From the NCBI RefSeq assembly GCF_030013595.1, contig NZ_CP122768.1: a stretch of 64,000 nucleotides of DNA; one strand, 5' to 3'. This DNA is from Escherichia coli (GTDB taxonomy: Bacteria > Pseudomonadota > Gammaproteobacteria > Enterobacterales > Enterobacteriaceae). The position numbers were made by a program, and so were the translations under genes. Shown in pieces: positions 23,489 to 42,384 of this stretch. The notes under the pieces are model-generated. The model was not told where the DNA came from, made no database searches, and was given only the letters and a program-made list of their open reading frames with translations. Within the stretch, counting starts at the first letter, position 1, and every line of letters starts with the position of its first letter.

Positions 23489-25105
23489 TTACGGCATACT
23501 CATCAGCAGGTCTTCCTCACCGCGCCCGGCAGTTCCGCCACCGGAAACCGCACTGGCAGCATGCTGTGCCATAAAGCGATCAAAAAGTGTTTCCTGTGAC
23601 GGTTGCGATGCCGCCGGCGCGGCTGCCAGCAGCGTTTTCGCCTGCGCCACCGTCATTCCCGGTTGTTCTGTCAGTGCCTGTGCAAGTTGCTCGCGCCCTT
23701 TTGCCTCCGGCAGCGCCATAATCTGATCGCCGACACTTGCAGAACCAGCAACCGGTGCCGCCGCCAGTAACGTTTTGGCCTGGTCAACGGTCATTCCCGG
23801 CTGTTCAGCCAGCGCCTGCGCGAGTTGTTCACGCCCTTTTGCTTCCGGTAACGCCATAATCTGATCGCCTGTGCCTGCAGCACCAGCAGCAGGGGCTGCC
23901 GCCAGAAACGCTTTCGCCTGCTCCACCGTCATCCCCGGCTGACCTGCCAGCATCTGTGCCAGTTGCTCACGCCCCTTTGCTTCCGGCAGCCCCATAATCT
24001 GATCGCCCGTGCTGTCAGTACCGGCAACCGGCGCAGCTGCAAGCAACGTTTTCGCCTGCTCAACCGTCATTCCTGGCTGACCTGCCAGCATTTGCGCCAG
24101 TTGCTCGCGCCCTTTCGCCTCCTGACAATTCAGGATCCCCATCACGCGCTGATTTTCCTGGGCCACCGCTTCAGCAACGGTGAGATTTTTAACAGTCATT
24201 GCATTCTCCTTCGTAACAGAGTCATTCAGTACAGAAACCATCACTTCAACGGCATCTGCAGCATTAATCAGTTGATCAGCCAGGCCTGCATCAATGCCTG
24301 CCTGACCGTCATAAACGGCAGCCTCGGTATTCATCACCGCCTCTGAACTCAGCCCCGTATAAAGCGCCACCTTGTCGACAAACATCCGGCGGGCCTCATC
24401 AATACGGCGCTGAAAATCTGCACGCACACCTGCCGGCAATGCCTGAATACTGTTGCCGTCAACCTTATGCTGCCCGGAGTAAATCAGCGTGATGTCCACC
24501 CCTTCCTGTGCCAGTTGTTTCTCGTAACTGGTGTGCGCCATCATCACGCCAATCGAACCAATTTTTGCCGTCTGCGTGACCAGCCGACGGGTACAGGCTG
24601 CCGCCAGCAACATGGCGGCTGAACAGGCCATGTCATTACACAGCGCCCACACGGGCTTCTGTTCCCGCAGACGGTAAATCATGTCAGCACAGTCAAACGC
24701 CCCGGCAGCCTGACCGCCCGGGCTGTCGATATCCAGCAAAATGCCGCGCACATCCGGATCATTCACCGCCATCTGAAGGCGGGCCGTCAGGCCGTCATAG
24801 CCAGTCATGCCGGAGTAAGGCCGCAGGGTACCCAGTTTATGCACCAGCGTGCCGCTCACCGGAAGAATGGCGATGCCATTCTTCACCTGGTAACTCTTTG
24901 CCGGACGCTGACCGCCCGCCATATAGTCAGTCACAGCCAGTTGCATACCATCAGCATCAAGCTGAACAGCCTGCTGAGGAACGGCAAGGCTGCCGGCACC
25001 CATCTCTTTACCCAGCGCGCAAAAGAAAACCCGCGCATAGGCGGGTTCCAGTAAAAGCGGCTCATTAAATGCCATGGCGGCAATATGCGATAAATTACGA
25101 CGCAT
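23489..25105 (-). CDS. prohead protease fused to scaffold (lambda C/Nu3-like, S49 peptidase) with C-terminal ~46-aa repeats
   Basis: N-terminus MRRNLSHIAAMAFNEPLLLEPAYARVFF resembles lambda C; C-terminal repeats PEAKGREQLAQ.LA.QPGMTV.QAK.LLAAAP occur about 3.5 times. Confidence 0.85.
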   Translation of the reverse strand: MRRNLSHIAAMAFNEPLLLEPAYARVFFCALGKEMGAGSLAVPQQAVQLDADGMQLAVTDYMAGGQRPAKSYQVKNGIAILPVSGTLVHKLGTLRPYSGMTGYDGLTARLQMAVNDPDVRGILLDIDSPGGQAAGAFDCADMIYRLREQKPVWALCNDMACSAAMLLAAACTRRLVTQTAKIGSIGVMMAHTSYEKQLAQEGVDITLIYSGQHKVDGNSIQALPAGVRADFQRRIDEARRMFVDKVALYTGLSSEAVMNTEAAVYDGQAGIDAGLADQLINAADAVEVMVSVLNDSVTKENAMTVKNLTVAEAVAQENQRVMGILNCQEAKGREQLAQMLAGQPGMTVEQAKTLLAAAPVAGTDSTGDQIMGLPEAKGREQLAQMLAGQPGMTVEQAKAFLAAAPAAGAAGTGDQIMALPEAKGREQLAQALAEQPGMTVDQAKTLLAAAPVAGSASVGDQIMALPEAKGREQLAQALTEQPGMTVAQAKTLLAAAPAASQPSQETLFDRFMAQHAASAVSGGGTAGRGEEDLLMSMP

Positions 25106-32453: not shown

Positions 32454-32528
<75 letters not shown>

Positions 32529-32531
32529 ATA

Positions 32532-32607
<76 letters not shown>

Positions 32608-32609
32608 AC

Positions 32610-32686
32610 TGGACCGCCACCGGGGACTCGAACCTCGCACACTCAACTTAAAGGGTTGACGCTCTTTCCCGATGAGCTAGTGGCGG
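32610..32686 (-). tRNA. tRNA with nominal anticodon UUU (Lys) but atypical anticodon loop (C at position 33)
   Basis: Acceptor ccgccac/gtggcgg, GGTTCGAGTCC T-loop, anticodon arm tcaac-CCTTTAA-gttga; one mismatch in the T-stem. Confidence 0.45.
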
Positions 32687-32687
32687 T

Positions 32688-32763
32688 TGGTGGCCCTTGC
32701 TGGATTTGAACCAGCGACCTGGCGATTATGAGTCGCTCGCTCTCACCACTGAGCTAAAGGGCC
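32688..32763 (-). tRNA. tRNA-Ile2 (anticodon CAU, ileX/ileZ-like)
   Basis: Sequence closely resembles E. coli minor tRNA-Ile (GGCCC.TTAGCTCAGTGGT.AGAGC…GACTCATAATCGC…GGTTCAA.TCC…GGGCCACCA). Confidence 0.7.
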
Positions 32764-35365: not shown

Positions 35366-35431
35366 CGGTTTTCTCCGGTGGCACGGTGTTACTCAGCAGG
35401 AGTTCAATCCTGTTCTGGATTGTAGATGAGT

Positions 35432-35692
35432 TTATTCTTCTGCAAAAGCAGAAAATCCAGCCTTAAGACCAATCTCTTTCAGAACCTGTAATGATGTTAC
35501 AAATTCATCTTCACGCAAAATAAAACCGTCCGTCATAAGCTCATCAACAAAATAAATTAACACAGCTCCGCTCTTCCTTTGTTGAGATTGCAAACATTTA
35601 ATTCGGCAGTGACTGGCTATAACTCCATTCTCAACGCGTACAGCATAGAGGCCATTTTCACTAAAAATTTCACAAAATTCTTCGATTTTCAT
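35432..35692 (-). CDS. hypothetical protein
   Basis: 86-aa ORF; no recognisable motif. Confidence 0.35.
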   Translation of the reverse strand: MKIEEFCEIFSENGLYAVRVENGVIASHCRIKCLQSQQRKSGAVLIYFVDELMTDGFILREDEFVTSLQVLKEIGLKAGFSAFAEE

Positions 35693-35834
35693 CTTCAGAA
35701 TCCTTCCAGATAAATAGCTCTCCCCTTCTCAGGGTCCATCCCTCTTGTCCCTGCGCGCTACTCAAAACAGGAGGATTCTAATTAATCTTTATTTCTAAGC
35801 AACGCAAAAAACAAACCAAAAAAAAGACAAAACC

Positions 35835-35933
35835 ACAAACAATACAAACAATACAAACAATACAAACAATACAAACAATACAAACAATACAAACAATACA
35901 AACAATACAAACAATACAAACAATACAAACAAT
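35835..35933. repeat. tandem repeat, 11 perfect copies of the 9-mer acaaacaat
   Basis: Read directly from the sequence; intergenic, about 170 bp from the hok 3' end. Confidence 0.95.
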
Positions 35934-36015
35934 ACAGGCGCATCGATAATTAATTAACTTATCGGGTTACAAGGTAATATAACTTCAGTTAAAATTATTA
36001 ATCTCTTATTCGTGA

Positions 36016-36044
36016 AAAACAAAACCCGCCGAAGCGGGTTAAGT
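36016..36044 (-). terminator. intrinsic terminator of the hok transcript (aacccgcttcggcgggtttt on the minus strand)
   Basis: GC hairpin with tetraloop and T-run downstream of the hok stop. Confidence 0.6.
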
Positions 36045-36108
36045 GCGGGTGCTTTGAGGATGCCTGACACATCAGAGGTGGCGAGGGATTTCTCCCTCGC
36101 CTGGTCTC

Positions 36109-36264
36109 TTACTCCTCAGGTTCGTAAGCTGTGAAGACAGCGACCTCCGTCTGGCCGGTTCGGATTCGTACCTCGCAGAGGTCTTTCCTCGTTACCAGTG
36201 CCGTCACTATGACGGTTAAACAGATGACGATCAGGGCGATTAACATCGCCTTTTGCTGCTTCAT
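36109..36264 (-). CDS. hok: Hok/Gef-family type I toxin (51 aa), absent from the ORF track
   Basis: Hand translation: MKQQKAMLIALIVICLTVIVTALVTRKDLCEVRIRTGQTEVAVFTAYEPEE; SD aggag upstream; overlapping short mok-like frame; hallmark Hok TM domain and conserved Cys. Confidence 0.85.
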   Translation of the reverse strand: MKQQKAMLIALIVICLTVIVTALVTRKDLCEVRIRTGQTEVAVFTAYEPEE

Positions 36265-36554
36265 AGCCTGCTTCTCCTTGACCTTTCGGTCCGTAAGAGG
36301 CTAATCTCTATGTGTCGCATAGATATGGCCTCAGATTAATGTTAAGCGTCTTGCAGGACGCGTAATGTTAACTGGGGCTTTTCTCTATCTGCCTTTTGGT
36401 GTTCATGCCTGAGGCAGATAGCCTCAAGCACCCGCAGCAATTCTACTTAACTCTCCTTTTCCCGCAAACCGTTTTTATCCCCATCGGCAAATCGAATACA
36501 CCACCAACGCCACCGCCATCGCAATTCCTACTGTAGTGAATGCCTCAGGCCAGG

Positions 36555-36950
36555 TCATCGATTCACCTCCTGCTCAATATTTTTAAGGTCATTTTCCGCA
36601 TACAGTATTGCTGTCCTGGCTGCTCGTAACCGGGCTTTGGCGTTTTTCTCTTCACGTTCAAGTTTTGCCACAGCTTCACGAAGAGCATCCCGCTTTGCAT
36701 AGAGTGATTTTATCTCAGACACTATGTTTTCACCGTTTCTCGCACGCTCGAGAACAAGCTCGAACGGATCTAAAGCCAATCCGCATCGGTTACAGGTAAT
36801 CGTACGATTCACTTCTGAAATTGTTGTACGGATATGCTGACAGCATTTTTGCTCGCCGCTTTTTCTGTCGGTTATCACAACGTTGAGGAGTCCTTCCTCC
36901 TCTGATTTTGGCTGTACCAGGGTGATAACATTGTCGACTTCATTTTTCAT
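36555..36950 (-). CDS. hypothetical protein with Cys cluster and C-terminal coiled coil
   Basis: 131-aa ORF; CCQH…CNRCG motif. Confidence 0.4.
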   Translation of the reverse strand: MKNEVDNVITLVQPKSEEEGLLNVVITDRKSGEQKCCQHIRTTISEVNRTITCNRCGLALDPFELVLERARNGENIVSEIKSLYAKRDALREAVAKLEREEKNAKARLRAARTAILYAENDLKNIEQEVNR

Positions 36951-40337: not shown

Positions 40338-41166
40338 GGTTTACCCCCTTGCTGACTGGTTTAACCTGTGCCCTGACGTGATTTACGTGACGGGCGAATT
40401 TCTGCTCCCACTGAACCTGCGTGAACACTTTGCCCTCATCGCTCCAGTAATCCCGGAATGCGGCAAGTTCAGCAGGTGTAAATTCCGGCTCCGGCAAAGC
40501 CATCCCCCACAACGCAGCCCGTCGTCGAAAATCCCGTGACGGATGCCAGCTATCGGTCATCGGAAATTTTCCGATGGGTTCGCTCAGGCCATCCAGGAAT
40601 ACGGGTGGCACTGCCTGTAACGACAAAACTTCCTGCTCACTGGTCGGAGCACTCTCGCGTGCGTTATGTGTGGGGTTTAGATCTTTGGGTTCCTTTGGGT
40701 TCCGTGATCCGTTTTTGGGTGTCTTTGATGGAAAATTTGGGTGTCTTTGGTTATTTTCCATGCAGCTAAGAGTTCCGTTTTTGGGTCTGTTTTGTGCTGA
40801 AACATAACCATTTTCGGTACTGTTTTTATTAACAGTACCAATTTTACCCACCTTTAAAGACTCCCGTTTTTGGGTGTATTCAGGCTCGGCAACACTTTCT
40901 TCTACACCGATAAGTCGGTACACCACAATTTGCTTTGTTCTGCCTTTTCTCTCACCGGTATCAACAATTAACCCAATCTCCATCAGGTGTCGTAAGCTGT
41001 CCTGCACAGTCTTTTTGTTCAGTTCCGTTACTTCTGCCAGTGCAGATACAGACGGGTATGCACACAAATCGGCACCGCACATATCAGCAAGCCAGGTCAA
41101 TACTGACTTACTGGATGAACTGCCGGTTTTCACCTTTTTAGCCCATCGTAGTGCATCGATACTCAT
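40126..41166 (-). CDS. replication initiator O-like (N-terminal HTH origin-binding domain)
   Basis: Track ORF 40126-41241; start placed at MSIDALRWAKK; iteron array lies inside the gene. Confidence 0.65.
   Translation of the reverse strand: MSIDALRWAKKVKTGSSSSKSVLTWLADMCGADLCAYPSVSALAEVTELNKKTVQDSLRHLMEIGLIVDTGERKGRTKQIVVYRLIGVEESVAEPEYTQKRESLKVGKIGTVNKNSTENGYVSAQNRPKNGTLSCMENNQRHPNFPSKTPKNGSRNPKEPKDLNPTHNARESAPTSEQEVLSLQAVPPVFLDGLSEPIGKFPMTDSWHPSRDFRRRAALWGMALPEPEFTPAELAAFRDYWSDEGKVFTQVQWEQKFARHVNHVRAQVKPVSKGVNHAAAPGGTASRAVQEIRAAREQWERENGFISDGNGLEAVGTHGGGLFEPLDPEERGRTFEALDCTDWRDD
40670..40880. repeat. candidate replication origin: iterons (tttgggt-type repeats) plus AT-rich inverted repeat inside the O-like gene
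   Basis: Repeated …ctttgggttcc/gtttttgggtgtc… motifs and palindrome ggtactgtttttattaacagtacc; lambda ori lies inside O in the same manner. Confidence 0.55.
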
Positions 41167-41689
41167 ACGAACCCCTGGCAGACATTTGTTTATCTGCAAA
41201 GTAATATTGGTATTGCTGACGATACGCGTGCTTGAAAGCAATAGCTTTTTCTATAAGCTCGTCAGTCTCACGTTCCACAACAGCTGGATCCGCAAAAAGC
41301 AGCCCGGACTCCACCACATCGCCATATTCTTTGTTTAACCCGGCGATCATGTACGTAATGCTTTTTCCGTCAGTAATTTCACAATACAACCTGAAATCGC
41401 TGATCCGGATAGCCTCCATAATTGCCGGAATCAGCGCCGTGAATTTTTCCCGCTTATCCCTGGTGTCGATAGCTTTCCAGCGTTCGAATATCTTCACCCG
41501 GTTAACGCCCAGCGCCCGTTGATCAACCGCGCCATCATCAAACGTGACGCGTTGAACATCGATGTTCGGGCGTTCTTTCAGAGCCCAGAAGGCTTCCGTG
41601 ATTAATATCGTCGCCTGCTCCTGTGTCATTCCTGGTCGGCACACCCAGGCATCCAGAGCCTCACAAACCTGTTCAGGGGTGATTTTCAT
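41138..41689 (-). CDS. hypothetical early protein (YdaT/cII-position)
   Basis: 183-aa ORF between the cro-like and O-like genes. Confidence 0.4.
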   Translation of the reverse strand: MKITPEQVCEALDAWVCRPGMTQEQATILITEAFWALKERPNIDVQRVTFDDGAVDQRALGVNRVKIFERWKAIDTRDKREKFTALIPAIMEAIRISDFRLYCEITDGKSITYMIAGLNKEYGDVVESGLLFADPAVVERETDELIEKAIAFKHAYRQQYQYYFADKQMSARGSYEYRCTTMG

Positions 41690-41900
41690 TGTTCAACCGC
41701 CCCGCCCGCTTTGCCTTACGATATTCGTCATAAACTTTGGGGTCGTACTGAAGTTCCCCGCCGGATGCCTCTTGCAGGCGCATCGCGCGACCTTCAGGAA
41801 CCAGTTCCCCCCATGCAGCAATGCTTGCCAGCCTAACTCCTGCGGCATTGGCAAGCTTTGTTTTGCTGCCAAAAAACGCTATAGCATCAATTTTCAACAT
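41673..41900 (-). CDS. Cro/YdaS-like HTH regulator
   Basis: 75-aa ORF divergent from the repressor gene. Confidence 0.6.
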   Translation of the reverse strand: MLKIDAIAFFGSKTKLANAAGVRLASIAAWGELVPEGRAMRLQEASGGELQYDPKVYDEYRKAKRAGRLNNENHP

Positions 41901-41976: not shown

Positions 41977-42384
41977 ATGAAAAACGAAACCTTCGGTGCT
42001 CGCCTCTTACATAGGCGTAAAAAATTAAAACTGTCTCAGGCCGCATTAGGTAAGCTGGTCAAAGTGGCTCACGTAACAATTTCTCAATGGGAAAGAGATG
42101 AAACACAGCCGGCGGGGAAAAGATTATTCGCACTGAGCCAAGCGCTTCAGTGCTCACCGACTTGGCTTCTTTTTGGGGATGAAGATAAACAACCAGGCGA
42201 ACCGATCCCGGATAATCAGCCAGCCATTCTGACAGAAGATCAAAAAGAGTTACTTCAACTGTTCGACGCACTGCCTGAGTCAGAGCAAAAGGCCCTGTTG
42301 TCAGAGATGCGTGCTCGAGTTGAAAATTTCAACAAACTTTTTGAAGAACTACTCAAAGCTCGCAAAAGAAGCGCAAACAAATAA
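41977..42384 (+). CDS. prophage repressor (XRE-family HTH, cI/DicA-like)
   Basis: 135-aa ORF with N-terminal HTH (LSQAALGKLVKVAHVTISQWER); flanked by related operator motifs. Confidence 0.75.
   Translation: MKNETFGARLLHRRKKLKLSQAALGKLVKVAHVTISQWERDETQPAGKRLFALSQALQCSPTWLLFGDEDKQPGEPIPDNQPAILTEDQKELLQLFDALPESEQKALLSEMRARVENFNKLFEELLKARKRSANK

Follow-up and report, generated by a model that had tools for sequence, protein, structure and literature searches.

What does an array of eleven identical 9-bp units do in the spacer between a prophage antirepressor gene and a hok/sok locus of Escherichia coli, and how did it arise there? The array lies in the window, by which is meant the whole 64,000-nt stretch of DNA that was analysed, and comprises eleven perfect head-to-tail ACAAACAAT units (35835-35933) followed by a partial twelfth (ACA). 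Tandem Repeats Finder gave a period of 9, 11.3 copies, 100 % matches, 0 indels and a score of 204, by far the strongest short-period repeat of the window. Across the 64-kb window the 9-mer is present 13 times, whereas dinucleotide-preserving shuffles contain it 0.81 +/- 0.92 times, and 13 copies were reached in 0 of 100 such shuffles. An earlier note, made from the letters of the DNA, had described a perfect 11-copy array between an 86-aa ORF and the hok terminator. Direct reading and Tandem Repeats Finder confirmed the array, and its position is as described there. The same note had allowed for a sequencing artefact, which is contradicted by the presence of the array, in whole perfect units, in 14 independent assemblies of isolate genomes and of viral and metagenome contigs. 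The features around the array are:

35432-35692, minus strand: rem homologue of 86 aa (tblastn; phrog_340 match)
35693-35768, minus strand: conserved rem leader (alignment of at least 139 loci)
35802-35797 and 35780-35775, minus strand: -35 hexamer TTGCTT and -10 hexamer TAGAAT, with a 16-nt spacer, of the putative rem promoter, P_rem (comparative)
35803-35834, no strand assigned: A-rich proximal flank of the array, T-rich on the minus strand (flank sequences of the alleles)
35835-35936, no strand assigned: tandem array of ACAAACAAT, 11.3 copies (direct reading and Tandem Repeats Finder)
35937-36016, no strand assigned: distal AT-rich part of the spacer module, 26 % GC
35944-35964: near-palindrome CGATAATTAATTAACTTATCG, immediately distal to the array, in array-type modules only
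36013-36040, minus strand: hokD intrinsic terminator (7-bp stem at 36040-36023 with 5 G-C pairs, T-rich tail)
36109-36264, minus strand: hokD coding sequence (ORF, annotated as hokD in RefSeq)
36262-36433, minus strand: hok leader/sok region (Rfam RF01794, 108 bits)

The spacer that holds the array is about 250 bp long, has a GC content of 26 % and forms a sharp AT-rich trough at 35800-36000; its segment 35937-36016 is present only in array-type loci. The genes around the array are all on the minus strand, as are the prophage early genes, and a minus-strand (early-rightward) transcript would read the array as (AUUGUUUGU)n. The array itself lies outside the conserved ORFs, the hok mRNA and the promoter core. 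On the plus strand of the same spacer, a promoter-like site (GTTACA-18-TAAAAT, 35966-35995) that is found only in array-type modules is aimed at the hok 3' end, in antisense.

The origin of the array can be read from its alleles. Units were counted in complete-genome loci, two homologous viral contigs and three metagenome contigs, whereby the metagenome contigs and a repeat of the viral scan were searched with flank-only patterns that did not require the array; the repeat viral scan with these patterns yielded no further class-I allele. Perfect units at the 15 homologous loci, window included, numbered 4, 4, 5, 5, 6, 7, 7, 7, 8, 10, 10, 10, 11, 13 and 13, distributed as follows:

4 copies: L184, L185
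5 copies: L001, L007
6 copies: L005
7 copies: L004, L022, L183
8 copies: L009
10 copies: L002, L003, L006
11 copies: the window
13 copies: L008, L031

A further metagenome contig (L186) terminates within the array, as expected for a repeat. Pairs of close relatives locate the change precisely. L005 and L006 (6 and 10 copies) are separated by 1 substitution in 5,476 aligned bases and a 36-bp gap, L001 and L003 (5 and 10 copies) by 6 substitutions in 5,467 aligned bases and a 45-bp gap, and L010 and L011, which carry variant-unit arrays, by 4 substitutions in 5,468 aligned bases and a 19-bp gap, the gap being the only internal one in each pair. A matrix of 2.2-kb flanks likewise gave 0-2 substitutions among loci with 5, 10, 13 and 13 copies. 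Given that loci 4-5 units apart differ by 1-6 substitutions, with the array as the sole indel, the array is a slippage-driven variable-number tandem repeat (VNTR), and it is hypermutable relative to point substitution. The case is a clean one, in that the array is the sole length difference in 5.5 kb of near-identical DNA. The identical head-to-tail units and the whole-unit polymorphism on near-identical haplotypes are those of a VNTR, and the comparison of copy number across isolates, which ranges from 4 to 13 in near-identical haplotypes, upholds the suggestion of the earlier note that the repeat is slipped-strand and copy-variable. Beside the array, a homopolymer A tract (35820-35827) is A7, A8 or A9 in otherwise identical alleles, which could reflect a real second slippage site or long-read homopolymer error.

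Diverged relatives (L010, L011, L012-L014, L148 and L187) carry degenerate or variant-unit arrays whose number also varies. They hold either (CACAAACAA) x2 versus x4 within degenerate units, or 7-9 imperfect units in which the internal ACAAACAAT run is variable as well. Because the variant-unit arrays differ in number too, slippage has acted independently in several lineages, and the degenerate and variant arrays together appear to trace a pattern of minisatellite birth and decay. Under the proposed mechanism, whole 9-bp units would be gained and lost by replication slippage on an old, decaying minisatellite, of which one unit would have been homogenised and expanded in the window's lineage. 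Alleles with fewer than four units were absent from the approximately 23 module-bearing loci, flank-only searches included, which is a weak hint of a minimum-length constraint from a small and phylogenetically non-independent sample.

The module that bears the array, marked at its loci by the flank sequence ATTCTAATTAATCTTTATTTCTAAGCAACGC, is carried by about 19 of the 5,426 complete genomes of E. coli searched. When 521 bp spanning the array served as the query, the whole stretch was found in 11 of the 5,426, a diverged version, about 75 % covered, in 8 more records, and some part of it in 4,454 genomes. A query spanning rem, the spacer and hok/sok matched 4,732 genomes, most of its length being matched in only 11, and the spacer occurred in no deposited phage genome searched. 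Since the module is missing from more than 99 % of hokD/rem loci, it is dispensable for both genes. A 27-mer of three units, searched elsewhere, was found at 27 viral and 18 genome loci, of which only L022 and L031 are homologous. The other loci (L019-L063 minus these two) belong to AT-rich giant-virus contigs, Bacillota and cyanobacteria, and in these unrelated genomes the 27-mer sits alongside other repeat units (AATACAAAG or AATCCAAAC, for example); they look like convergent low-complexity repeats that are often apparently coding. A literature search on the ACAAACAAT unit, E. coli prophage VNTRs and repeat-controlled antirepressors returned nothing relevant.

To judge from gene content, the window contains a lambdoid prophage that looks intact and belongs to the DicA type, with a non-cleavable repressor. 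Its principal genes are:

Upstream of the array: O-like replication gene, CII-like gene, Cro/DicC-like gene, divergent repressor, exonuclease and integrase
41977-42384, plus strand: DicA-type repressor of 135 aa, 97.8 % identical to annotated dicA
41673-41900, divergent from the DicA-type repressor: Cro/DicC-like ORF
36555-36950, minus strand: phage ORF of unknown function, first in transcription order and followed by the hok leader/sok
After rem in transcription order: 92-aa ORF, then DUF968, RusA and Q genes (RefSeq annotation of homologous loci)
32454-32763, minus strand: tRNA cluster (Met-CAT, Lys-TTT, Thr-TGT, Gly-TCC), after Q and before the lysis genes
Downstream of the tRNA genes: holin, endolysin, terminase, portal, protease/scaffold and major head genes

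The Q gene also matches phrog_304, no stx gene was present among the ORFs checked, and NCBIfam gave no matches to the ORFs neighbouring the array. A second tandem repeat, with a period of 138 bp (23614-24122; 3.7 copies, 80 % identity), lies within the head maturation protease/scaffold gene (23489-25105, minus strand) and is an in-frame 46-aa protein repeat.

The 86-aa ORF next to the array is 59-78 % identical, across 97-100 % of its length, to genes that carry the annotation rem, Rem or 'prophage antirepressor' (tblastn). RefSeq calls the rem-like ORF of the close relatives L001-L011 a 'frameshifted' pseudogene of 289 nt (locus coordinates 2305-2593; window 35404-35692). The rem ORF of the window is intact at 86 aa and aligns end to end with annotated Rem proteins, and the label of pseudogene may be an error of annotation. 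In K-12, Rem of the Qin prophage relieves DicA repression, with dicBp induced 165-fold (bioRxiv 10.1101/2023.04.14.536235). Two papers, this preprint included, describe the signal or regulator that controls rem as unknown. The DicA-type repressor of the window is the presumed target of Rem.

The Gifsy antirepressors, which are analogous to Rem, are LexA-controlled. Near P_rem the 20-mer LexA consensus had no match at up to 3 mismatches, and the core CTGT-N8-ACAG had no site with at most 1 mismatch in 35700-36100; control of rem by LexA on the Gifsy paradigm was rejected, there being no box at P_rem. Elsewhere, a perfect LexA-box-like CTGT-N8-ACAG core (CTGTTTTTATTAACAG) lies at 40820-40835, inside the O-like replication gene, and sites with at most 1 mismatch number 34 in the whole window, against 19.8 expected.

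The promoter of rem was located by comparison. Different sequences separate the hok terminator from the ORF that follows it, and the motif GATTCTA (TAGAATC on the transcribed strand) was first spotted when these were compared. It is invariant in at least 140 matches and stands 11-12 nt from AGTAGCGCGCAGGGAnAAGAGGGATGG, the sequence on both sides being mosaic. These matches came from a conserved-block scan of viral contigs and from loci already collected, and 139 had enough flank for alignment. Among the matches listed, 31 of 31 distinct upstream sequences, grouped by eye into approximately eight unrelated types, have TTGnnn (in one case TTAACT) 16 or 18 bp before TAGAAT. From this conservation we infer that TTGnnn-16/18-TAGAAT is the sigma-70 promoter of rem, with transcription probably starting near 35768. 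The promoter-like element and the leader block were traced in the window and at loci L001-L018, L022 and L064-L182. A simple consensus scan did not list P_rem, as its 8/12 matches (3/6 in the -35 hexamer) are under the scan threshold.

Within the leader, AGTAGCGCGCAGGGAnAAGAGGGATGG forms an invariant 27-nt block (35762-35736, minus strand) that is kept even where a 55-aa ORF replaces rem (L012-L014, L104 and L157), and the promoter and leader block could together be the control region of the Rem antirepressor. A small G+C hairpin, CCCUGAGAAGGGG, lies at 35734-35722 of the rem leader. Its stem is invariant, compensatory changes were not seen in it, and the rem leader folds no better than shuffles (z = 0.42); a boxB/nut-like element or structured RNA in the leader was dropped as a candidate, the stem being merely invariant and free of covariation.

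Relative to the inferred start of P_rem, the array spans about -67 to -168. The T-rich stretch at 35803-35834 corresponds to about -36 to -66, where an UP element would sit. In the commonest loci, which have no module, the promoter follows directly after the hok terminator, and the T tail of the terminator occupies the UP-element position. The functionally relevant neighbour of the array would, on this arrangement, be the rem promoter/leader side rather than hok.

Taken together, the array is probably a slippage VNTR (minisatellite) in a non-coding spacer of a DicA/Rem-type lambdoid prophage, and its copy-number changes are probably near-neutral. Such an array would have arisen incidentally, from slippage in a dispensable spacer that is AT-rich and T/G-skewed. 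Gain or loss of units would cause no ON/OFF switching and at most a modest tuning of rem transcription, by altering how long the AT-rich DNA upstream is and how it is phased on the helix. Every allele has four units or more and presents the same DNA to RNA polymerase out to about -100, so that a change in copy number should be selectively near-neutral. The earlier note had linked slippage to a phase-variable switch; the slippage-prone repeat was borne out and the switch was not. As the unit is 9 bp long, reading frames are kept whatever the number of copies, no conserved ORF runs across the array, and the array lies upstream of the inferred -35 rather than between promoter hexamers, an architecture that differs from that of classical phase variation. 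Nor does the array hold a promoter of its own: the consensus scan found no promoter-like hexamer pair inside it, and the hexamer spacings allowed by a 9-bp period do not fit 16-18 bp.

Among the alternatives to a near-neutral VNTR, the one that survives best, though unlikely, is that the array acts as a rheostat. Copy number would set the distance and helical phase (9 bp is approximately 0.86 turn) of P_rem relative to elements farther upstream (the near-palindrome at 35944-35964, for example, or the region of the hok terminator), or would instead set the amount of T-rich DNA available to the alpha subunits of RNA polymerase, so that rem expression and the frequency of spontaneous prophage induction vary heritably and reversibly. 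The position of the array upstream of P_rem is consistent with this, as are the derepression of DicA-type repressors by Rem homologues, whose inducer the literature states to be unknown, the presence of DicA in a prophage that looks intact, and the minimum of four units in every allele. However, the near-palindrome is not strictly conserved, class III having TGATAA for CGATAA, rem works at most of its loci in the absence of the module, the observed copy numbers favour no helical phase, and the DNA is identical among alleles out to about -100. In its full form, in which the array tunes the Rem antirepressor promoter heritably and reversibly and sub-lineages of a lysogen differ in their rate of spontaneous induction, the proposal is doubtful indeed. 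If true, it would be a case of tandem-repeat-driven bet-hedging at a lysis-lysogeny switch, which is undescribed for lambdoid phages; if copy number did tune rem, simple-sequence hypermutation would be linked to the frequency of prophage induction. As the array appears to adjoin the promoter of a gene that triggers prophage derepression, even a quantitative effect would be biologically meaningful.

It is quite improbable that the AT-rich module serves as a platform for an H-NS-type protein. On this view, a repressive filament would form on, or spread along, the 26 % GC module, array included, holding rem silent in the lysogen or shielding it from hok read-through, and a longer array would give tighter silencing. 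The AT-rich trough described above would suit such a platform, the flank TCGATAATTA resembles TCGATAAATT, which we take to be the published high-affinity H-NS motif, and the weak -35 hexamer (3/6) suggests an easily silenced promoter. However, the argument is one of base composition, the commonest rem loci do without the AT-rich module, and TpA steps are few in the array.

Modulation of hok/sok, which the earlier note had suggested on the strength of position, is very unlikely. The array would have to alter transcription into or out of the locus, through terminator efficiency or the fate of the hok mRNA, and its proximity to the terminator is what speaks for this. However, it begins 77 bp downstream of the last T of the terminator tail and is therefore outside the hok mRNA, and it is missing from the hok/sok loci of more than 99 % of genomes and from phages, so that a tie to hok is not supported. 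The array RNA is also unstructured, with no fold on either strand (MFE 0 and -4.9 kcal/mol), and the transcribed strand is rich in G and U and has no C, the reverse of what a Rho-loading site looks like. An Rfam search over the array gave nothing at the gathering score and, at E <= 1, only CrcZ (14.9 bits versus 95), which is at chance level. Over the hok 3' end and terminator (36019-36100, minus strand), Rfam gave a sub-threshold match to isrK, an Hfq-binding sRNA, at 28 bits (gathering score 50; E = 8e-4).

Least credible is a coding role, in which the array would specify the repeated core of a short hydrophobic minus-strand peptide (MRLYCLYCLY..., 35943-35782, or the MFVLFVL... frame), for although the array is open in all three minus-strand frames and most alleles have the ATG at 35943, neither ORF has a ribosome-binding site, that ATG has no upstream Shine-Dalgarno sequence, the C-terminus falls in three different frames as the homopolymer beside the array varies in length between loci that are otherwise identical, L012 has a stop after 3 codons, and RefSeq places a gene over the array in 0 of the 14 array-module E. 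coli loci.

Specific binding sites were considered as well. A DnaA box (TTATNCACA) has, by eye, at least 3 mismatches in any register of the unit, and as an operator for DicA or DicC the unit is unlike the CTTAG...CTAAG palindromes of the prophage dicA-dicC region.

A near-neutral VNTR also has the closest counterparts among known systems. E. coli VNTR loci used in multilocus VNTR analysis (MLVA), both the generic CVN loci and the O157 TR/Vhec loci, are often intergenic and are attributed to replication slippage. The array resembles them in its short perfect head-to-tail units and in whole-unit copy differences between close strains. Unlike them, it sits on a rare prophage module (about 19 of 5,426 genomes) rather than being a species-wide marker, and neither its unit nor its locus was found in the searched literature. 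In Haemophilus influenzae, the 7-bp repeats of hmw1A/hmw2A, and in Neisseria meningitidis, the nadA TAAA tract, tune transcription by copy number and not by frame. There too a hypervariable tandem tract lies upstream of a gene, and the resemblance is positional only. For hmw and nadA, expression has been shown to change with the tract, which is flanked by defined promoter or regulator sites, whereas the array is upstream of an inferred -35 and UP-like region.

Iterons and centromere-like arrays, such as the 11-bp repeats of R1 parC and the iterons of plasmid or lambda origins, likewise place several direct repeats in non-coding DNA. The units of the array, in contrast, are abutting 9-mers off the helical repeat, with neither spacers nor dyads, their number is unconstrained (4-13), and no partition or initiator gene adjoins them, the O-like gene being 4 kb away. 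The same spacing, dyad and copy-number features speak against the array of binding sites that had also been proposed. With respect to hok/sok (RF01794), a type I toxin-antitoxin locus, the array is a physical neighbour, with the terminator 77-100 bp away, and is not conserved with the locus. The setting is shared with Gifsy GfoA/GfhA and Qin Rem/DicA, in that a Rem homologue lies downstream, DicA is encoded and the antirepressor has its own (inferred) promoter; unlike LexA-controlled GfoA/GfhA, no LexA box was found near P_rem. No description of a tandem repeat upstream of an antirepressor promoter was found in the searched literature. In structure, the array thus fits the known VNTR class and departs from phase-variation repeats, hok/sok elements, iteron or operator arrays and LexA-controlled antirepressor loci.

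As a VNTR, the array would serve chiefly to type, at fine scale, the few E. coli lineages in which the module is present. The more solid by-product is the comparatively defined rem promoter and leader (at least 139 loci), which offers a concrete experimental target.
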